Shown here piece by piece: positions 31,212 to 61,951 of a DNA stretch of 64,000 nucleotides. Origin of the DNA: Spirochaetaceae bacterium. GTDB lineage: Bacteria > Spirochaetota > Spirochaetia > DSM-27196 > PWMO01. The notes beneath the pieces are model-generated. The model made no database searches and had not been told where the DNA came from. It worked only from the letters and a program-made list of their open reading frames with translations. Every line of letters begins with the position of its first letter. Positions within the stretch are counted from its first letter, which is position 1. A program made the translations under genes and the position numbers. The stretch lies in assembly GCA_007693325.1 (NCBI GenBank), contig REDW01000090.1, positions 32,504-96,503 on the forward strand, in the 5' to 3' direction.

Positions 31212-31874
31212 TCAGCGCTTACGGTAGCGCAGTTCGATTTCCCAGGGGTGCGTCAGACCGGTGTAGGTGGCTCCCTCGCGCTGGATACTCTGGTTGCGGT
31301 TATCGTACTCGATGGTCACGTTCTGATTGCGCACAACGCGGTGGTCGTACTCCAGCCGCAGGTCGGATTCTACCGCTACGGGCCGCTGGCGCTCAAATGC
31401 AATATCGGTGAAGAATGTGTGGTCGTACATGCGAACACGCAGCGTGCGCTCCCGGTTGTCCAGTGGATGGCGGAAGGGTACAAAGAAGCGGTAGACAATC
31501 CGGTGGTTGCGCATAAAGGCGCTGAACTGCTCGATGCTGTCGGTGGCGTGGGATTCCCCGTCGACAATCACGTAGGTGAAGTAGTCGTAGAATTGCAGAT
31601 TGGAAAACGCGCCGTCGTGGATCTCCTGAATCAGGCTATCGGAGAACGAACCCTGTCGCGGAGCGCCAAAGTCAAGCACAATCATCGACGTGAACAGCTC
31701 GTCAAAGGCCCACTCGGCCCAGAAGCCTTCCAGTGAGTTGCTGTTGAACTGAAATGTGACGCGTGCGTCGATGAAAACATGCGGGTGAGCGTTGGCTGCG
31801 CCCGGAGCACTCAGAAACAGGGCCAGTCCAAGAAGCGCGCCTGCAACGCCCCAGCGGCTTTTTGCTCGTGCCAT
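31212..31874 (-). CDS. DUF1007 family periplasmic protein
   Basis: Signal peptide followed by the AHPHVFID motif and the WxFDE pattern typical of DUF1007. Confidence 0.75.
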   Translation of the reverse strand: MARAKSRWGVAGALLGLALFLSAPGAANAHPHVFIDARVTFQFNSNSLEGFWAEWAFDELFTSMIVLDFGAPRQGSFSDSLIQEIHDGAFSNLQFYDYFTYVIVDGESHATDSIEQFSAFMRNHRIVYRFFVPFRHPLDNRERTLRVRMYDHTFFTDIAFERQRPVAVESDLRLEYDHRVVRNQNVTIEYDNRNQSIQREGATYTGLTHPWEIELRYRKR

Positions 31875-54891: not shown

Positions 54892-56133
54892 ATGCAAGAG
54901 ACGCAGAGACACAGCCGTGAGGCCGACCACCGCCGGGATGCCAACCGCGGTCCGCAGGCGGTGCAGTTTGGCGCCGGCAATATCGGGCGCGGGTTCATGG
55001 GGCAACTGCTGCACGAGGCAGGCTACCACATCACCTTCATAGACGCGGCGGTTGATCTGGTGACAGCGCTGGAGGCCGAAGGGCGCTACCCGCTGCGCGT
55101 GCTGGATGCAGAACAGGGCGCGGCGCAGGACCTGGTGATAGATAACTTCAGCGCGGTTCTCGTAACTGACCGGGCGCGTACCGACGCGGCAATTGCCGCT
55201 GCCGACGTAGTATTCACCGCGGTGGGGGTGCGTTACCTGGGGGAGATCGCGCCGGTGCTGGTTTCCGGGCTGCGCGCGCGCCGCGCCATGGATGCCCCGC
55301 CGCTGGACGTCTACCTGTGCGAAAATCTGCTGGATGCCGCAGGACAACTCTGCAACGCAGTGTCTGCACTAATCAGCGAAGACGAGCGCGGCTGGCTGCA
55401 GCGGCGCGTCGGGTTTGTGGGCACCTCGGTGGCGCGCATGGTGCCGGTGCTGCCGAGCGAGCTGCGCGCCGGGCAGCCGCTGCTGGTTGTGGCGGATGGT
55501 TATCACAAGTTGCCCTACGATGCTGCTGCGCGCCGCGCGCCGCAGCCGCCGATCGACGGTATGTACGCGGTACCCGACTTTGCCGCCGAAGGCGAACGCA
55601 AGCTTTTCATCTACAACATGGCGCACGCGGCGCTGGCCTACCTGGGCCACCAGCTCGGCCTGCAGTACGTGCACCAGACCTTTGATGATGCCGCTGCTAT
55701 GCAACTGTTCCGCGGCGCTCTCGATGAGGCGTGTGCCGGTCTGGCTGCCGCACGACCTGGAGTCTTCAGCGCCGATCAACTGGCTGAGACCCGCGCCGAC
55801 ATCCTGCTGCGATTTGCCAATCCGATGCTGCAGGACACCATAGACCGCGTCGGCCGTGACCCGATCCGTAAGTTGGGCAGATCCGATCGACTTGTAGGCT
55901 GCGCTCTGATGTGTCTGCGCGGCGGAGTCCGGCCGCATAACATCACCGCAATTTGCGCTGCGGCGCTGCGCTACGACCGCGCCGGTGATCCGGACGCCGA
56001 GCGTTTGCAGACAATGATCCGCGACCGCGGCCCCGCGCAAGCGCTGGCCGGGGTCTCCGGGCTCGACCCCTCCGGCGATCCAGACCGCAAGTTGATCAGC
56101 ATGGTGATGAAGCACTATGATCTCGGCGCGTGA
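54892..56133 (+). CDS. mannitol-1-phosphate 5-dehydrogenase / mannitol dehydrogenase family protein
   Basis: N-terminal VQFGAGNIGRGFMGQLL typical of MtlD-type enzymes. Confidence 0.7.
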   Translation: MQETQRHSREADHRRDANRGPQAVQFGAGNIGRGFMGQLLHEAGYHITFIDAAVDLVTALEAEGRYPLRVLDAEQGAAQDLVIDNFSAVLVTDRARTDAAIAAADVVFTAVGVRYLGEIAPVLVSGLRARRAMDAPPLDVYLCENLLDAAGQLCNAVSALISEDERGWLQRRVGFVGTSVARMVPVLPSELRAGQPLLVVADGYHKLPYDAAARRAPQPPIDGMYAVPDFAAEGERKLFIYNMAHAALAYLGHQLGLQYVHQTFDDAAAMQLFRGALDEACAGLAAARPGVFSADQLAETRADILLRFANPMLQDTIDRVGRDPIRKLGRSDRLVGCALMCLRGGVRPHNITAICAAALRYDRAGDPDAERLQTMIRDRGPAQALAGVSGLDPSGDPDRKLISMVMKHYDLGA

Positions 56134-56746
56134 GGCACTGCAGCGGCTGCAGGCGGGTAACGAGCGCTTTGTGGTGCACCGGTCCGAGCACGATACTTTG
56201 ACCAGCGTAGAGCGCCGGCTCACGCTGACGGCTGCTCAGGAACCTTTTGCGGTAATTCTGGGATGCTCGGATTCACGCGTGCCGGCCGAAATTGTCTTCG
56301 ACCAGGGACTCGGTGATCTGTTTGTGATCCGCGTTGCCGGAAACATCGTTGCATCGTCGCAGATCGGCAGCGTTGAGTTTGCCGTGGAGGTGTTCGGCAC
56401 ACCGCTGGTTGTGGTCCTGGGACACACCGGTTGCGGTGCGGTGAACGCTACAGTAGACCAGCTCGAGCAACCCGAGCGCGAGCAATCGCCAAATCTGCGT
56501 TCGATAGTTGACCGAATTCGTCCTGCGGTTGAGCCGTTGCTGGAATCCGGACTGCGCTATGGTCGCTCTGAACTGGTGCGCCGGGCAATCCGCGCCAATA
56601 TCCGCGCTTCGGTCGATCAGCTTCGCGGCGGCTCAGCCATCCTGCAGCGGCACGTAGAGCACCATGGATTGCGTGTGATCGGAGCCGAGTACTCGCTGGA
56701 TTCCGGCAGGATCGATTTCTTCGAAGGCGTTGACCGGCTCGATTGA
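56117..56746 (+). CDS. beta-class carbonic anhydrase
   Basis: CSDSR and GHTGCGAV zinc-ligand motifs and an N-terminal LQAGNERF. It overlaps the upstream gene by 17 nt. Confidence 0.85.
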   Translation: MISAREALQRLQAGNERFVVHRSEHDTLTSVERRLTLTAAQEPFAVILGCSDSRVPAEIVFDQGLGDLFVIRVAGNIVASSQIGSVEFAVEVFGTPLVVVLGHTGCGAVNATVDQLEQPEREQSPNLRSIVDRIRPAVEPLLESGLRYGRSELVRRAIRANIRASVDQLRGGSAILQRHVEHHGLRVIGAEYSLDSGRIDFFEGVDRLD

Positions 56747-56773: not shown

Positions 56774-58579
56774 CTACAGCAGCGCGCCGATCTGCGCTAT
56801 GGCGCCGCCGAGCAGGAAGGCGGTGCCGGTGGTCAGCAGTAGCATGCCGATGGCGGTGCGCACGCCGAATTCACGGCCCAGCGTAGCAACAACTGCAATG
56901 CACGGCACGTAGAACAGCCCTACGGTAGCGCCCACAAAGAGCTGCAGCTGGGTCAGCGGCATATCGAGCAGCGGCAGCACCGTCAGCTCGCGGCGCACCA
57001 CACCCAGCAGCAGCGGCACTGCGGCTTGCTGCGGCAGGCGCAGCCATCCGGTTACCAGCGGCGCCAGCAGCACCCCGATCTGCGCCAGCAGACCGCTCTC
57101 GTAGAGCAGCGCCGCCACACCAACGGCCGCCACCATCGGCAGGGCTCCATCCGTGAGGTAGTTCCTGGCGCGCGCCAGCAGTTTCTGCAGCATTACCGCC
57201 GGACGCGGCATCAGCAGCTCGGGAAGCTCAAACACCAGCTGCGACCGCTCGCCGGGGAGCAGGCGGTCTGTGATCAGTCCGGCAATGATCATCACCAGAA
57301 ACGAGAGACCAAACAGCGCCGCCACCAGCCACACACTGGATTCAGCCAGCAGCGCGAACAGCGCTCCGGTCTGCGATATGCACGGAACAGCCAACGAAAT
57401 CAGCGTAGCCACAATCAGCCGTTCACGGCGTGAGCCCATCGCGCGGGTGGACAAAATACCGGGAATCGCGCAGCCGTAGCCGAGCAACAGCGAGATGCTG
57501 TGCGATCCTCTCAGACCGATCTTTGACAGCAGTCCATCGAGCAGCACTGCAAACCGCGGCAGGTAGCCGGAGTCCTCCAGCAGGCTGATCGCCAGGTAGA
57601 AGGAGAGCACGTACGGTAGTACCAGGGTGAACGGCCACTCGATACCCTTGATCAGCAGTCCGTACTCGCCAATCAGAATGTTCTGAAACAGGCCGGGCCC
57701 AATCGCACGCGTGACCGCAGCAGTCAGGAGCGGGAAGAGGTAACCGCGCGCGATCGGCAGCAGCAGCAGCTGGCGCATACCCATCCCCAGCCCCACAATC
57801 AGGCCGAACGCCAGTGCAAGAACCAGTACCGCTACCACCAGCCCCGGCCACGGGCGAACCAGGGCTTCGGAGTCAAATCGGCGCCGGCTGCCGCGCCGCA
57901 GAGATACGCGGCGCCGCCGAGCGGTTTGTGACACCGCCGGCGCCGTGTGGACCGCTTGAGCGATCTCTTCGGCCAGCGGCCACAGGCCGGCTGTCTCGGT
58001 TGTCGCTGCAGTGTGCAGAGTTCCGGCGGCCGCTGACCCTTCGGCGGGTGCCGGTTTGCGCAGCGTCTGCGCAACAAGCTGGTGCAGCTGCGCAAACCCC
58101 TGGCCGGTGACGGCAACCGTGGGCGCCACCGCAACACCCAGCAGGCGCGACAGCTCTGCGGCATCGACCGCTATTCCCCTGGCGGCGGCTACGTCGATGC
58201 GGTTCAGCACCACCACGGTGGGCTGTTGCCTTGCCAGCACCTGCAGCACCAGGTAGACGCTGCTTTCCAGGTTGACCGCATCGGCTACCGCGATTACCAG
58301 GTCAACCGGGCGCGACAGCATCTCGATTGCTACGCGTTCGGCTTCGTTAGTAGCCGACAGCGTGTAGGTTCCGGGCACATCAACCAGCGTGGCTTCGAAT
58401 TCGCCAATGCGGCCAATACCGCGTGCAAACTCCACGGTGGTGCCCGCGTAGTTGGCAACCGATACGTCCATGCCGGTGAGCCGGTTGAAGATGACACTCT
58501 TGCCGACGTTTGGAGCTCCGATCAACAGGATCTCGCAGGCGCCGGTGTCTGTGATGCCAGATCGGGCGTGACAGCGCAT
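56774..58579 (-). CDS. feoB: ferrous iron transporter FeoB
   Basis: N-terminal G domain (GAPNVGKS, DVPGTYTL, NRID) followed by a polytopic gate/nucleoside-recognition membrane domain. Confidence 0.9.
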   Translation of the reverse strand: MRCHARSGITDTGACEILLIGAPNVGKSVIFNRLTGMDVSVANYAGTTVEFARGIGRIGEFEATLVDVPGTYTLSATNEAERVAIEMLSRPVDLVIAVADAVNLESSVYLVLQVLARQQPTVVVLNRIDVAAARGIAVDAAELSRLLGVAVAPTVAVTGQGFAQLHQLVAQTLRKPAPAEGSAAAGTLHTAATTETAGLWPLAEEIAQAVHTAPAVSQTARRRRVSLRRGSRRRFDSEALVRPWPGLVVAVLVLALAFGLIVGLGMGMRQLLLLPIARGYLFPLLTAAVTRAIGPGLFQNILIGEYGLLIKGIEWPFTLVLPYVLSFYLAISLLEDSGYLPRFAVLLDGLLSKIGLRGSHSISLLLGYGCAIPGILSTRAMGSRRERLIVATLISLAVPCISQTGALFALLAESSVWLVAALFGLSFLVMIIAGLITDRLLPGERSQLVFELPELLMPRPAVMLQKLLARARNYLTDGALPMVAAVGVAALLYESGLLAQIGVLLAPLVTGWLRLPQQAAVPLLLGVVRRELTVLPLLDMPLTQLQLFVGATVGLFYVPCIAVVATLGREFGVRTAIGMLLLTTGTAFLLGGAIAQIGALL

Positions 58580-60309
58580 CAGGAGCTTTCAGACAGCGGT
58601 GTGATTCCAATCTGCGATGCTATAGAGCGTTCCAGAGCAACCTGGCGTCCGCCGATTGAGCAGATGACCGGGCCGCCCCACGGCTGGCAGGCCACCAGGC
58701 TGCAGGTCTTACCGGGGCGCAATCCCAGCGCGGCGAGCGCCGGGAGGTCCGGTGCGTGCGAGATGGTCCCGTGTTGCCGCGGGGCGAGGTCACACAGCAT
58801 GCACTGGGTGCACCCGCTGGTGGCAATATCGTTGGCGGAGACAAAGTCTTCGGGTTTTCTGAGCATTACCAGTTCCTTGTGGGCCGCTATTCTGATGACC
58901 GTACCTGCCTGCCGCAGGCCGAGTTCGCCGGGCGTCACACGCCGGTAGGCACCGCACAACGCACCGCGTGGATTGCGGTAGACTACGCGCGTGTCCGCGT
59001 CGGCGGTCTCCAGGATGCGTTGCAGTACCGTTTCTCTTGGCTGCACGTGCAATGCAACCACCACCGCATCGTAGCCATGGTACGATAAGGCCAGTCCGTT
59101 ATCGTGCAGCAGGGTAATCGCGCCGGCACCGCTGTTGCGCGGAGCCTGGCGTCTGAGTGCCTCTCGGGCGGTCAGCAGCGCTTGCTGGTTACAGTCAACC
59201 GCGGTTACGTTACAGCCGCGCCGTGCCAGACCCAATGCGGTCATCGGGTATGGACCGGAACCCAGCACCAACACGCGCGACCCGGGTGTGAGCCTGGCCA
59301 GGCGGTGTTCTGCGGCGATCATTCCGCGGTAGAAGACAGCCGTATAGATCCATCCCCAGGCGCGACAGCGTGCAGCAAATCTCTCGAGCCGCACCACGGC
59401 GCGCAGGAAGAAAGAATAAATCCACGACATGGGTACGCTCCTTGACGTAATGCCGCTGCGTGGCCGGCCGTCCCGGTTTGCCGCCAGCGTCAGCGCGGCG
59501 GCGCTCGAGAGAAGCAACGGCCACCAGAAAGTGATGACTCGCGACAGCAGCGTCACAGCGGCGGCTTCACCGGCGCCGATTCCTGATGCTATCAGGATTC
59601 CAGCCATTCCCACCTCGTAGCTACCCAGGCCGCCGGGGGTAATCGGCAGTAGACCCAGCGCGTAGGCGCCAAAGGTTGCGGCTACAATTGCCGCCGGCGA
59701 CACGCTCACGCCGCTAATGCGTGCGGCCAGTGCGACCTTGAGCGGGTAGAGCGCCCAGATCAGCACCGCCAAGACCAGCAGTACGGCCACCAGCCGGCCT
59801 GGTAGATAGGCTCTGCCGGGGCCGGACATAGTGCGATAGAGCAGCGCAAGTGCGACACTAACCGCTGCCAGCGCTGCAATGACCACTGCGCCACCAGCGG
59901 CCGGAGCGATGCCGAGCAGACCGCCGACAGCGGCACCTCCGGTTATTACCGCAGCAATCGGGACCACCAGCAGCAATGCCACGAGCATCAGCAGCTTGTG
60001 CAGCGCCATGGCTCCAACCAGCCGCGCGGAGCTCAAGCCAAAACGTTGCCGAAACAGCAGCACTCGCGTTGCCTCGCCGCCCAGCTTGGCTGACGGTGTA
60101 ATGGACTCTATCAGACTGCCGCCGAGATAACGCAACATGACCGATTTCCACCCCACCGCAACTTCGCCGGACTTGATCCCGCGCAGCAGCAATGTCCACT
60201 GCAGCCCGATGAGACCGAGAGACAACGTCTGTAACAGCAGCAGCCCGGTCACCGCGAGCCACGATAGCTGCGACAGGCATGCCAGAGCTGCGGCAAGTTC
60301 GGCTTTCAC
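58579..60309 (-). CDS. three-domain fusion: MprF-flippase-like (UPF0104) membrane domain, nicotianamine-synthase-like domain, FeoA domain
   Basis: aa 1-275 are polytopic with ITPGGLGSYEVG. aa 285-495 carry VLVLGSGPYPMTALGLA, VTAVDCNQQA and YDAVVVALHV. aa 500-572 carry CTQCMLC plus the FeoA-like LAALGLRPGKTCSLVACQPWGGPVICSIGGRQVALERSIASQIGI. The stop overlaps the feoB start (TGATG). Confidence 0.65.
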   Translation of the reverse strand: MKAELAAALACLSQLSWLAVTGLLLLQTLSLGLIGLQWTLLLRGIKSGEVAVGWKSVMLRYLGGSLIESITPSAKLGGEATRVLLFRQRFGLSSARLVGAMALHKLLMLVALLLVVPIAAVITGGAAVGGLLGIAPAAGGAVVIAALAAVSVALALLYRTMSGPGRAYLPGRLVAVLLVLAVLIWALYPLKVALAARISGVSVSPAAIVAATFGAYALGLLPITPGGLGSYEVGMAGILIASGIGAGEAAAVTLLSRVITFWWPLLLSSAAALTLAANRDGRPRSGITSRSVPMSWIYSFFLRAVVRLERFAARCRAWGWIYTAVFYRGMIAAEHRLARLTPGSRVLVLGSGPYPMTALGLARRGCNVTAVDCNQQALLTAREALRRQAPRNSGAGAITLLHDNGLALSYHGYDAVVVALHVQPRETVLQRILETADADTRVVYRNPRGALCGAYRRVTPGELGLRQAGTVIRIAAHKELVMLRKPEDFVSANDIATSGCTQCMLCDLAPRQHGTISHAPDLPALAALGLRPGKTCSLVACQPWGGPVICSIGGRQVALERSIASQIGITPLSESS

Positions 60310-60941
60310 GCTGTTCTCCTGCCTATTCCCTTATGCGCCACCGCTTTGCAGAGTACCGAGCGGTTGAAGGTCGGCATGCGGTGACGGGTTTCGGCAACGG
60401 CCGCCCCGGCTGCGGCGAAAACGCCGTATTCGTGTTCCAGGCCGGGGCGCGCCAGGCGAAAAACCGCGCGGCCGTTCGGCTGCAACAGGCAGCGCTGAAG
60501 GTTGTCCCAGATGGCGTCCTTGGGTGCAGCCTGCAGCGCCACCAGTGCCACAGTTGCAACCGGCAAGCGGTCAACGGCGGCGTCTGCGGTTATAACCGTG
60601 ATGCGGTGCGACAGACCCAGGCAGCTCACCAGCTCGCGCGCCTGCGCGGCGGCAGCGGCGTCGACATCCACCGCGATTACCCGCGCCCCGCTCTGCCGGG
60701 CTGCGAGTACCGCGCTGAACGGCAGAGTACCACAGCCGATACTGAGTACTGTGTCGCGCTGATCCACCGCGGCGAGCTGTAGCTCGCGCGCAACAAGCGC
60801 CCGGTAAGGAAGCGCATAGAGCGCAAAAAACCATGGTCGAACGGCGAATCGCCGTTCCAGCGACGCAACCAGTGGCTTGATCATGCTCATGCAGAGTTCC
60901 GCGAGCCGGAGCAGTGCGAAACAATCGGGCATGAGCGGCAC
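60306..60941 (-). CDS. nicotianamine-synthase-like / atypical SAM-dependent transferase (paralogue of the fusion's middle domain)
   Basis: Motifs SIGCGTLPFSAVLAA, VIAVDVDAAAAAQARELV and RITVITADA. The stop overlaps the next start. The start codon is uncertain (GTG 60941, ATG 60932, ATG 60890/60884). Confidence 0.55.
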   Translation of the reverse strand: MPLMPDCFALLRLAELCMSMIKPLVASLERRFAVRPWFFALYALPYRALVARELQLAAVDQRDTVLSIGCGTLPFSAVLAARQSGARVIAVDVDAAAAAQARELVSCLGLSHRITVITADAAVDRLPVATVALVALQAAPKDAIWDNLQRCLLQPNGRAVFRLARPGLEHEYGVFAAAGAAVAETRHRMPTFNRSVLCKAVAHKGIGRRTA

Positions 60942-61084
60942 GCTGCCGTAACCGCCGCAGCGTGGCTGCAGCGCATGCCCGGGCTACCGTGGTGCAGAAA
61001 ACAGAGCATGTGCCCCAAGAGTGTCAGCGGTCCTCGTAACGCAGCCCACACAATGGCTCTCCTCAAAGTTTTAGGCTTACCTAA

Positions 61085-61113
61085 CTTTTAACGCGCGAAC
61101 GAGGACTTGTCAA
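61085..61113 (-). promoter_or_regulatory. sigma70-like promoter TTGACA-N17-TAAAAG for the NAS-like/fusion/feoB operon
   Basis: Read on the minus strand in the AT-rich spacer. The -35 overlaps an ATACTTGA motif copy. Confidence 0.35.
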
Positions 61114-61165
61114 GTATTCAATAGAAAATTATCGAAAAGTGTTAGTGGTGATGTCGGGGGGCGGC

Positions 61166-61951
61166 TCAGGAGAACCGAAAGATCACTCCCAGGCCGAGTA
61201 ACCAGCTGCGGATCTTCTTATCGTAGTCTCCGTGGGCAGGGTCATCCTGCACGTCCTCGGAGGTACTCCAGATACGCGTGCGGCGAGCAACCGTGGCGTC
61301 CAGCTTGACAACAGGCGAGAGGTGATAGAGCACGTTCAGGTAGGGACCGTGACCGTAGAGCAAGGTCTCCGCAAAGTTAAGCGGTACGTAGAACTCATAG
61401 TTGGCAGCAATATTGAGAAGCGGCTCGCGGTCAACAACCCAGAACCAGGTCAGCCCCGGCCGCAGGTTCAGCCACTGCTGCTGGTTGAAGGTGTTGTAGA
61501 AATAGCGGTTCTTAAGCATCAAGACCCAAGTCTCACCGGGCAGCATCTCCAACAGAAAGCGCGGCGAGACGTCGGCAAAGAACACGTGTTCTGTGCGCGA
61601 GTCAGTGTTCTTCCACTCGAAGCTGTCGTTTGTGGCGACCCAGTCGTCATCGTGACGGGCCCCCTGCTGCACACGGTAGAATCCGCCGACCTTGAGGTTG
61701 CGGTGCAGACGGTAGTAGCTGCCCAGTGTCAGCGAACGGTAGAGCACATCGAACTGGTCTTCGGCGCGCCCGTCGACGCTGATCATCGGCTCCCACTCCC
61801 CGAAGCGCCAGAAACCACGCACATGTGTTTCAAATTCGATCCTGGAGTCCGGTGCCGACGGCACGTGGCGGTCGGCCGGAAGCGTCACGGTCACATTGAG
61901 CAGTACTAGCAGCGCCAGCAGCACCATCATCGATTTGGCAAACTTGAACAT
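61166..61951 (-). CDS. predicted outer-membrane beta-barrel protein (possibly DUF2490-like)
   Basis: GGGAGG RBS 5 nt upstream, a signal/anchor sequence, alternating beta-strand pattern rich in Y/F/R/N, and a C-terminal ..VIFRFS. Confidence 0.55.
   Translation of the reverse strand: MFKFAKSMMVLLALLVLLNVTVTLPADRHVPSAPDSRIEFETHVRGFWRFGEWEPMISVDGRAEDQFDVLYRSLTLGSYYRLHRNLKVGGFYRVQQGARHDDDWVATNDSFEWKNTDSRTEHVFFADVSPRFLLEMLPGETWVLMLKNRYFYNTFNQQQWLNLRPGLTWFWVVDREPLLNIAANYEFYVPLNFAETLLYGHGPYLNVLYHLSPVVKLDATVARRTRIWSTSEDVQDDPAHGDYDKKIRSWLLGLGVIFRFS

Follow-up and report, generated by a model that had tools for sequence, protein, structure and literature searches.

A spirochaete Feo operon encoding two shortened NAS/CntL-type enzymes, one of them fused to a flippase-like membrane domain and to FeoA

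Introduction

Nicotianamine synthase (NAS) and the CntL enzymes of the cnt opine clusters belong to one superfamily, whose sole chemistry known to us is the transfer of the aminocarboxypropyl group of S-adenosylmethionine (SAM) in building aminocarboxylate metal chelators. FeoA is the cytoplasmic partner of the transporter FeoB. The present work describes an operon in a 64-kb stretch of DNA from a soda-lake Spirochaetaceae bacterium (contig REDW01000090.1; the whole analysed stretch is called here the window), in which relatives of the former are encoded together with FeoA and FeoB. Open reading frames (ORFs), their translations and profile searches on the window proteins formed the basis of the analysis. 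Judged by its sequence, the cassette is a Feo system with an unprecedented accessory unit, and is not a cnt-type cluster, not MprF and not a canonical NAS.

The best-characterised role of the LPG_synthase_TM family of membrane domains is to flip a modified lipid produced by the enzyme domain to which they are joined. The cnt clusters (staphylopine, pseudopaline, yersinopine) are regulated by Zur. They are defined by CntL and CntM, accompanied by an EamA, MFS or MatE exporter and an ABC or TonB importer (PMC7438024). The NAS of plants and that of Methanothermobacter thermautotrophicus (MtNAS, thermonicotianamine synthase; PDB 3FPE/3FPG/3O31) make hexadentate chelators without a dehydrogenase (PMC10248798).

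The operon analysed here follows the overall plan of the cnt clusters, with a SAM-dependent enzyme of the aminobutyrate-transferase type and, as predicted functions, export through the membrane, import of the metal and control by a metal-responsive repressor; CntL is the second-best match of its NAS-like family. The differences relate to the importer, which is FeoB, to the predicted regulator, which is of the DtxR type, and to the lack of a histidine racemase. The first-pass annotation had noted that CntM, a DMT exporter and a TonB receptor are missing. Neither CntM nor an EamA, MFS or MatE exporter, nor an ABC or TonB importer, was found within or beside the cassette, whether of the window or of the relatives. 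The missing CntM is no objection to chelator synthesis, since NAS and MtNAS need no dehydrogenase.

Organization of the operon

Analysis of the window revealed a translationally coupled operon of four genes on the minus strand, successively: a short ORF (sORF), a small NAS-like gene, a fusion gene and feoB. The following elements were distinguished:

61085..61113, minus strand: promoter-like element, TTGACA (61108-61113), 17-nt spacer, TAAAAG (61085-61090)
61066..61084, minus strand: DtxR/IdeR-type iron-box-like operator, TTAGGTAAGCCTAAAACTT, abutting the -10 element directly
60887..61051, minus strand: sORF, 54 aa, GTG start, first gene of the operon
60306..60890, minus strand: small NAS-like gene, 194 aa; the maximal ORF reaches 60941 (60306..60941, 211 aa)
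58579..60309, minus strand: fusion gene, 576 aa, GTG start; flippase-like transmembrane, NAS-like and Cys cluster/FeoA parts
59455..60309, minus strand: flippase-like membrane domain, aa 1-285 of the fusion; PGGLGxYE motif at aa 225-232
58834..59424, minus strand: second NAS-like domain, aa 296-492 of the fusion
58582..58812, minus strand: Cys cluster (C500, C503, C506) and FeoA/SH3-like domain of the fusion (FeoA aa 505-570, with C536 and C550)
56774..58579, minus strand: feoB, 601 aa; start overlapping the fusion stop (TGATG)

All three junctions are overlaps. The TGA of the sORF overlaps the ATG of the small gene in ATGA (60887-60890), the small gene and the fusion gene meet in GTGA (60306-60309; ...GCG TGA AAG...), and the fusion gene and feoB in TGATG (58577-58581; ...TCC TGA TG CGC...), with the A at 58579 common to both. 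The first-pass annotation had described a module of three overlapping minus-strand genes. The ORF list and direct reading of the junctions bear out the overlaps at these coordinates, and every peptide it quoted is present in the translations (ITPGGLGSYEVG, VLVLGSGPYPMTALGLA, VTAVDCNQQALLTAREAL, SIGCGTLPFSAVLAA, VIAVDVDAAAAAQARELV, YDAVVVALHV, RVVYRNPRG, CTQCMLC and RITVITADA). The gene count needed correction, the 54-aa sORF having been missed as the fourth gene. Similarly, the gene given as 211 aa exists as an ORF, but the ATG at 60890 (194 aa, MSMIKP...) is preferred to the GTG at 60941. The former is most likely the start, since all relatives start there and the 17 extra codons upstream of it change non-synonymously between the sister genomes.

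The 576-aa ORF is a genuine gene. Three cultured species of Alkalispirochaeta and numerous metagenome contigs share both the fusion and the gene order, and this presence in isolates and in many independent assemblies rules out an assembly artefact as the source of the fusion. Its middle domain and the small protein are paralogues, as had been supposed, with 40% identity over 81 aa (E 4e-9).

The NAS-like enzymes

Both enzymes are read from their sequences as shortened members of the NAS/CntL superfamily and not as nicotianamine synthases proper. They comprise about 190-200 residues each, vs 265-320 in NAS, and in contrast to NAS they occur as two paralogues, one of which is fused between a membrane domain and FeoA. 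In most searches the best sequence, profile and fold match for both parts is MtNAS or the plant/fungal NAS family (PF03059).

In phmmer searches against the PDB, the small protein matched MtNAS at 4.5e-7, CntL at 3.3e-5 and the best methyltransferase at 0.0012. The corresponding values for the fusion were 1.7e-8 (aa 326-473), 0.0093 and 0.063. The NCBIfam top match of the small protein is CntL (1.3e-8). A profile of 25 close homologues gave 1.4e-15 for MtNAS, 1.9e-10 for CntL and 2.1e-7 for the best methyltransferase, and a profile of 147 family representatives, taken from an exhaustive profile search, gave 6.4e-25, 1.2e-19 and, for the best non-NAS match or methyltransferase, 1.8e-8. PF03059 is also the commonest Pfam match within the family (102 of the 147 representatives), with relatives above its cut-off at 40.4, 39.3, 38.2, 35.4, 29.4 and 28.6 bits. 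Alignment by hhalign to a full-length genome-derived Methanothermobacter NAS reached a probability of 98.7 for the small protein and 99.1 for the fusion domain (E 1e-17), covering NAS from residue 66/68 to the C-terminus; the fusion domain corresponds to NAS residues 68-265.

The AlphaFold2 model of the small protein (predicted local distance difference test, pLDDT, 91.3), with only two helices before the first strand, has MtNAS (3fpe, 5.5e-12) as its best Foldseek match. For the fusion model (pLDDT 72) the Foldseek order is MtNAS (2.6e-9; 204 columns, root-mean-square deviation 3.1), MprF (2.5e-7), CntL (1e-6) and generic methyltransferases (9e-6 or worse). The profile and structure searches had been named beforehand as able to refute the proposed NAS/CntL relationship; for both proteins they favoured it, and profiles, hhalign and Foldseek rank support it at family level over that to ordinary methyltransferases.

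The motifs agree with this assignment. The SAM-binding motif is GxGxxPxT/S and not GxGxG: the small protein has GCGTLPFS and the fusion has GSGPYPMT, compared to GGGPLPLT in MtNAS and GSGAYPMT in CntL. The form GxGxxP[FLM]T is common to NAS and CntL (CntL LLVGSGAYPMT vs fusion LVLGSGPYPMT). In the small enzyme the motif GCGxxPFT is conserved, with G52, G54 and P57 invariant in the 147 representatives. The fusion domain carries RLE309, Y327, GSGPYPMT, VTAVD372, ALHVxP and RVVYRNPRGxLxxxY; features shared with NAS are the GxGPxPxT SAM motif, the AAL..PK and R..YR...G....Y motifs and the candidate Glu/Tyr pair. This pair consists of a Glu (E12 of the small protein; E309 in the 'RLE' of the fusion, identical to 'RLE81' of MtNAS) and a Tyr (Y29; Y327) which align with MtNAS E81 and Y107, the gap placement being ambiguous by 2-3 residues. 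The residues are proposed to be catalytic in MtNAS (E81, Y107) and are required in AtNAS1 (E77/Y106) (PMC10248798). The CntL counterpart is E84, for which a crystal structure of the E84Q mutant exists (PDB 7c9k). Neither the Glu nor the Tyr varies among the cassettes, and at least 90% of the 147 representatives retain E12 and Y29.

The flippase-like domain, the FeoA domain and FeoB

The N-terminal part of the fusion is a membrane domain of the UPF0104/MprF-flippase type, as the first-pass annotation had suggested: both PF03706 LPG_synthase_TM (2.5e-24, 86.8 bits vs a cut-off of 33.4; aa 6-267) and TIGR00374, flippase-like (70.6 bits vs 43.2), exceed their cut-offs. The MprF model NF033480 gave 34.8 bits against a cut-off of 600 and was matched only at positions 29-301, its N-terminal flippase part; the MprF found by Foldseek with the fusion model is that of P. 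aeruginosa (9j8s, 2.5e-7). The layout of the fusion is that of MprF: a flippase-type membrane domain at the N-terminus and, after it, an enzyme domain in the cytoplasm. In contrast to MprF, it lacks the aminoacyl-phosphatidylglycerol synthase domain with its six helices and the first helix, and has a NAS-like enzyme domain with FeoA appended. An alignment of nine spirochaete fusions showed that the first N-terminal helix of about 40 aa (region 60190-60309) is absent in the window fusion and the 89%-identical P0001 and present in the other seven; the flippase-like domain of the window thus has one helix fewer.

The C-terminal segment is a FeoA domain, again in line with the first proposal (PF04023, 6.1e-12, 45.9 bits vs a cut-off of 23, aa 505-570; phmmer vs PDB, FeoA 3e19/2k5i at 0.008). 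It aligns with the stand-alone FeoA proteins of related cassettes. All nine spirochaete fusions have the cysteines C503, C506, C536 and C550, which are not conserved in the unfused FeoA of other phyla. FeoB, which had been called canonical, contains all the expected domains: FeoB_N (PF02421, 4.8e-45), Gate (PF07670, 4.4e-27, in two stretches) and FeoB_C (PF07664, 5.1e-8). The cut-off of TIGR00437 (315.65) was narrowly missed, with 311.5 bits over residues 21-570.

The operon thus resembles known Feo systems (FeoABC; the FeoAB of Bacteroides fragilis) in possessing a full FeoB and a FeoA domain encoded immediately upstream in translational coupling. It differs from them in that FeoA forms the C-terminal end of a membrane enzyme of 576 aa, instead of a protein of about 75 aa or an N-terminal extension of FeoB, and in that FeoC is missing.

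Conservation and modular architecture

The fusion is rare: a word-indexed search of 5.8 billion proteins recovered 12 relatives. The cultured species that carry it are Alkalispirochaeta americana, A. sphaeroplastigenens and A. alkalica, and it is further present on many metagenome contigs. The spirochaete cassette always has the order small gene, fusion, feoB, and the flanking genes differ. A pattern-limited scan with one genome per species yielded 19 loci, on which the five modules (small enzyme, flippase-like domain, NAS-like domain, FeoA and FeoB) show every degree of fusion and fission. The arrangements other than that of the window include:

Desulfotomaculum: five separate genes, in the order of the fused version
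Spirochaetaceae metagenome-assembled genome (MAG) and Thermoplasmata archaeon: flippase gene and NAS-FeoA fusion
Syntrophomonadaceae: flippase-NAS fusion and small gene
Acetothermia, Dehalococcoidia: small, flippase and NAS genes beside convergent feoA-feoB
Herbivorax, Serpentinicella, Clostridiaceae MAG: FeoA, small, flippase and FeoB; second NAS-like domain absent

The constant core is the small enzyme with the flippase-like protein, usually accompanied by FeoA/FeoB. The question raised at the outset, whether the linkage of NAS-like proteins, FeoA and FeoB recurs in relatives, can be answered positively: the modules stand beside feoB, fused in some lineages and split in others, in Spirochaetota, Firmicutes (Desulfotomaculum, Clostridia), Dehalococcoidia, Acetothermia and a Thermoplasmata archaeon.

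Some of these loci show additional features. In the Desulfotomaculum MAG (L023, 5226-10550) a flavodoxin gene lies just downstream of feoB; flavodoxin is the typical low-iron substitute for ferredoxin. In two Syntrophomonadaceae MAGs (L013, 8715-10748; L014, 8429-10465) a gene for a secreted 5'-nucleotidase/metallophosphatase of about 677 aa lies downstream of the flippase-NAS fusion and the small gene, and both loci retain iron-box-like sites upstream. One Spirochaetaceae cassette (L012, 7396-9594), which is without a separate small NAS-like gene, encodes a FeoB of 732 aa with about 160 additional residues inserted between its G domain and its membrane domain.

The family of the small enzyme is large, with 3068 representatives at E <= 1e-3 and 665 at E <= 1e-10 in the exhaustive profile search. 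Nearly all of the best-scoring 150 are 177-230 aa long, and five longer members that were checked (P0043, P0087, P0167, P0177, P0179) are NAS-FeoA fusions without a membrane domain. Independent FeoA fusions are found as NAS-FeoA proteins of 268-308 aa and also as small+NAS+FeoA without the flippase domain. The only public names for the proteins of the cassette are 'flippase-like domain-containing protein' and 'methyltransferase' or 'SAM-dependent methyltransferase', and the family of the small enzyme is labelled publicly as 'methyltransferase' only.

Close homologues of the small enzyme were also seen in other settings. In Halorhodospira halophila and a second organism (L026, 6301-7583; L032, 7001-8291), a 52-53%-identical homologue overlaps a DedA/VTT gene, and this pair ends an operon with genes for a TonB receptor, Peripla_BP_2, FecCD, an ABC ATPase and a cobalamin adenosyltransferase. 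At a further locus (L034, 7001-7866) only 20 nt separate a homologue with 54% identity from the next gene, which encodes a metallochaperone-like HMA (heavy-metal-associated) domain protein of 86 aa.

Where the sources could be identified, they are soda lakes or hyperalkaline serpentinite sites, which is a strong hint of an association of the cassette with alkaline habitats. A 'CSSed' Spirochaetales MAG from soda-lake sediment, with 92% identity, is closest to the window. Members from alkaline sources include Alkalispirochaeta, Halorhodospira, Natronospora and Serpentinicella, and the Acetothermia MAG comes from the hyperalkaline Samail ophiolite well NSHQ14. Iron is very poorly soluble at pH 9.5-11. 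Herbivorax ANBcel31 originates from Siberian soda lakes (PMC11700989).

The promoter, the iron box and the sORF

The -35 element and the stretch from the -10 element onward are identical in the sister MAG loci L029/L031 and also in the more distant L003/L005. The TTGACA-N17-TAAAAG pair was not listed by a generic promoter scan, whose -10 rule demands T at position 6.

The box at this promoter is predicted to be a DtxR/IdeR-type iron-responsive operator. The consensus operator, TTAGGTTAGCCTAACCTAA, is a 19-bp palindrome (PMC7762939), which TTAGGTAAGCCTAAAACTT matches at 14/19 positions, 13/14 among the first 14. The 14-bp core, TTAGGTAAGCCTAA (61071-61084), occurs once in the 64 kb, where 0.07 matches would be expected even with one mismatch allowed. 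Upstream of the cassette the box was found with no mismatch at L029-31, L003, L005/6 and L008, with one at L004/9 and L011, and with two at L012-L014 (L013 and L014 being Syntrophomonadaceae); at the archaeal (Thermoplasmata) locus L015 it is present twice. A Fur box was also considered: GATAATTTTCTATTGAATA, upstream of the -35 element, fits the Fur consensus by eye at 9/19 positions only, and the DtxR-type box is preferred.

The sORF encodes a Cys/His-rich product, MWAALRGPLTLLGHMLCFLHHGSPGMRCSHAAAVTAACRSCPIVSHCSGSRNSA, and is preceded by a GAGGAG Shine-Dalgarno sequence 7 nt upstream of the GTG. Its features are (i) the motif [LI][WC]FLHHG ... C-x2-C-P-[IL]-x3-C, kept in every spirochaete cassette for which upstream sequence is available; (ii) codon differences at synonymous third positions (TTT/TTC, CTG/CTC/CTT, CAC/CAT, GGT/GGC/GGA/GGG); and (iii) 8 synonymous as against 4 non-synonymous changes when the window is compared with L029, in which the start codon is ATG instead of GTG. 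The sequence between the promoter and the first enzyme gene is conserved because the sORF is encoded there. A leader RNA or riboswitch at this position was rejected, as the fold is no better than that of shuffled sequences (z = -0.48). Rfam gave no match at the gathering threshold over the whole window, nor at E <= 1 for 60800-61250.

The product shares with FeoC and the 'FeoB-associated Cys-rich membrane protein' of Firmicutes/Bacteroidetes its small size, its cysteine content and its place in a feo operon, and it has a short hydrophobic N-terminal segment and a C-x2-C tail. In contrast to them, it stands first in the operon and is restricted to the spirochaete cassettes. None of five sORF products searched matched a Pfam or NCBIfam family at E up to 10, and membership of either known Feo accessory family was rejected for lack of a hidden Markov model match among them.

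Neighbouring genes

Directly upstream of the operon lies a 261-aa ORF (61166-61951, minus strand) with a signal-peptide-like N-terminus and a C-terminal ...VIFRFS, whose product may be an outer-membrane beta-barrel. It was rejected as an operon member: it has no Pfam, NCBIfam or PDB match and is kept only in the sister MAG, its position being conserved in L029-L031 only. A beta-class carbonic anhydrase gene (56117-56746, plus strand; Pro_CA 8.8e-41) converges on feoB, with 27 nt between the stops, and is not conserved beside the cassette in relatives. A DUF1007 protein (31212-31874, minus strand; 2.1e-39) is encoded by a second metal-related gene of the window; this family is usually linked to Ni/Co/Zn transporters.

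Proposed function and alternative explanations

The preferred reading, to which a probability of about 45% is given, is that the operon is an iron-repressed module for the synthesis of an aminocarboxylate chelator from SAM, its transfer across the membrane and the supply of Fe(II) to FeoB. It is suggested by the NAS/CntL chemistry, the lipid flipping of LPG_synthase_TM proteins, the FeoA-FeoB partnership, the iron box and the repeated metal contexts. The parts would act in the following order. Under Fe(II) scarcity a DtxR-family repressor would leave the box and the operon would be transcribed. The two shortened NAS-like enzymes would then transfer 3-amino-3-carboxypropyl groups of SAM onto an amine acceptor with release of methylthioadenosine, giving a nicotianamine-like aminocarboxylate ligand. 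The MprF-type membrane domain may carry this ligand, either free or as a lipid head group, to the outer face of the cytoplasmic membrane, where it would bind Fe(II), poorly available at high pH. The C-terminal FeoA domain, acting as a tether of the enzyme-translocator to the transporter, would dock the assembly on the cytoplasmic G domain of FeoB, so that captured Fe(II) could be imported beside the site of synthesis of the ligand. The Cys/His-rich sORF product may be a lineage-specific accessory, perhaps a metal or redox sensor similar in role to FeoC.

A free nicotianamine-like molecule would fit the data and would parallel the logic of synthase, exporter and importer in the cnt clusters and in the Halorhodospira operon. 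A lipid product instead of a secreted metallophore would fit the data as well, though it is unlikely. The analogy is with MprF, in which a cytoplasmic enzyme that modifies the head group is joined to the flippase of its own product: the two NAS-like enzymes, with their open chambers, would add one or more 3-amino-3-carboxypropyl units to a phospholipid amine, for example that of phosphatidylethanolamine, and the membrane domain would flip the head group to the outer leaflet. In alkaliphiles, an Fe(II) chelator anchored in the membrane would thereby concentrate iron at the mouth of FeoB. Such a product would fit because both membrane partners, LPG_synthase_TM here and DedA/VTT in Halorhodospira, belong to lipid-translocator families, because the small-molecule exporters usual in cnt clusters are absent, and because the chamber-closing N-terminal domain of NAS is lost. 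The best-characterised members of both membrane families move lipids. A precedent for such a transfer onto a membrane lipid is BtaA, the SAM:diacylglycerol 3-amino-3-carboxypropyl transferase of betaine-lipid synthesis. The likeness lies in the chemistry and is an analogy only; no family of the BtaA type (DUF3419) was found among the Pfam matches of either window protein.

Several observations weigh against the iron-supply reading. Both window copies stay under the PF03059 cut-off of 27.1 bits (small protein 23.7-23.9 bits, 3.6e-5; fusion 13.1), and Methyltransf_25 passes its cut-off for the small protein (1.9e-7, 32.1 bits vs 27). With the small protein, Foldseek TM-scores (0.62-0.65) do not place MtNAS above many of the methyltransferases; as a discriminator between the two the TM-score was discarded, and sequence profiles were used instead. 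The first 65 or so residues of the N-terminal helical domain of NAS are absent, alignments beginning at MtNAS residue 66-68. The reaction or the acceptor may consequently differ from those of NAS, because N-terminal residues that help to close the MtNAS reaction chamber are lacking. To our knowledge, the LPG_synthase_TM domain of MprF, which flips lipids, is the only one with a characterised function; we know of no export of soluble molecules by the family and of no FeoB that accepts iron from a chelator. No recognisable iron box was seen at the Alkalispirochaeta loci, feo genes are missing within about 6 kb of the Syntrophomonadaceae cassettes, and the habitat pattern comes from the 19 loci of the pattern-limited scan, several of which have no identifiable source.

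The alternative that survives best, though unlikely, is a cytoplasmic hand-off, in which an intracellular nicotianamine-like ligand would take over Fe(II) leaving FeoB, the flippase-like domain serving as an anchor only, with no export. Nicotianamine buffers Fe(II) inside plant cells in this manner, and we know of no extracellular role shown for the thermonicotianamine of MtNAS. Both FeoA and the SAM-dependent domains have to lie in the cytoplasm, the five longer proteins described above join FeoA directly to NAS-like domains even without a membrane domain, and the metallochaperone-like HMA gene follows a close homologue of the small enzyme. An anchor, however, would hardly need what is conserved: the flippase-like gene accompanies the small enzyme in every recovered cassette, with invariant polar and charged residues and PGGxGxxE kept. 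The Halorhodospira partner, DedA, is from a different translocator family, and is hard to see as a mere anchor.

Less probable still is that the enzymes are methyltransferases, acting on a lipid head group, on FeoB/FeoA or on another target, with the membrane domain moving the methylated lipid and the link to Feo reflecting membrane remodelling at high pH or regulation. The class I SAM-binding fold, the Methyltransf_25 score, the public annotation as 'SAM-dependent methyltransferase', the many such structures matching at E around 1e-9 with similar TM-scores and the absent NAS N-terminal domain would all be accounted for. The profile of the 147 representatives nevertheless prefers NAS/CntL by 11 to 16 orders of magnitude, the motif following GxG is of the NAS/CntL type (P-x-T), the candidate catalytic Glu and Tyr are conserved, and the genomic contexts are repeatedly metal-related.

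It is very improbable that the NAS-like domains are regulatory pseudo-enzymes, which would bind SAM or another metabolite and tune FeoB via FeoA to methionine/SAM or metal status without forming a product. In favour of this reading, FeoA is regarded as a modulator of the FeoB GTPase (PMC8980893), a domain that binds a ligand and is joined to FeoA could act as a sensor, and catalysis might have been lost with the N-terminal truncation. Against it, at least 90% of the 147 diverged representatives keep the residues proposed for catalysis and all of the SAM-binding motifs, the small enzyme is encoded as a protein of its own and occurs also where no FeoA/FeoB lies nearby, and two paralogues with a conserved translocator would be needless for sensing.

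Novelty and significance

The first-pass annotation knew of no described system with this architecture, and none of the papers searched here links Feo with NAS-like or flippase-like proteins. A survey of Feo architectures reports FeoA with 'an additional domain', but mentions no NAS, methyltransferase or flippase partners (PMC8749426). A survey of opine clusters makes no mention of Feo, flippase-like domains or spirochaetes (PMC7438024), nor does a phylogenomic study of NAS mention the cassette (PMC12454661). A full-text literature search for Feo combined with nicotianamine synthase or flippase-like returned nothing relevant.

The fusion appears to be the first case of a NAS-type enzyme joined to an MprF-type flippase domain and FeoA. 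The analysis also defines a large unannotated family of putative NAS/CntL-type enzymes of about 190 aa, tied to metal import in several genomic contexts. By analogy, there is a realistic chance that the cassette represents something categorically new, a lipid-anchored chelator; if the product is indeed a lipid head group, it would constitute a new class of membrane-anchored metal chelator. The operon may show how alkaliphiles of several phyla obtain iron at high pH. It makes the route of Fe(II) to FeoB, the role of FeoA and the iron acquisition of anaerobic alkaliphiles at pH 9.5-11 testable in the cultured Alkalispirochaeta americana, A. alkalica and A. sphaeroplastigenens.

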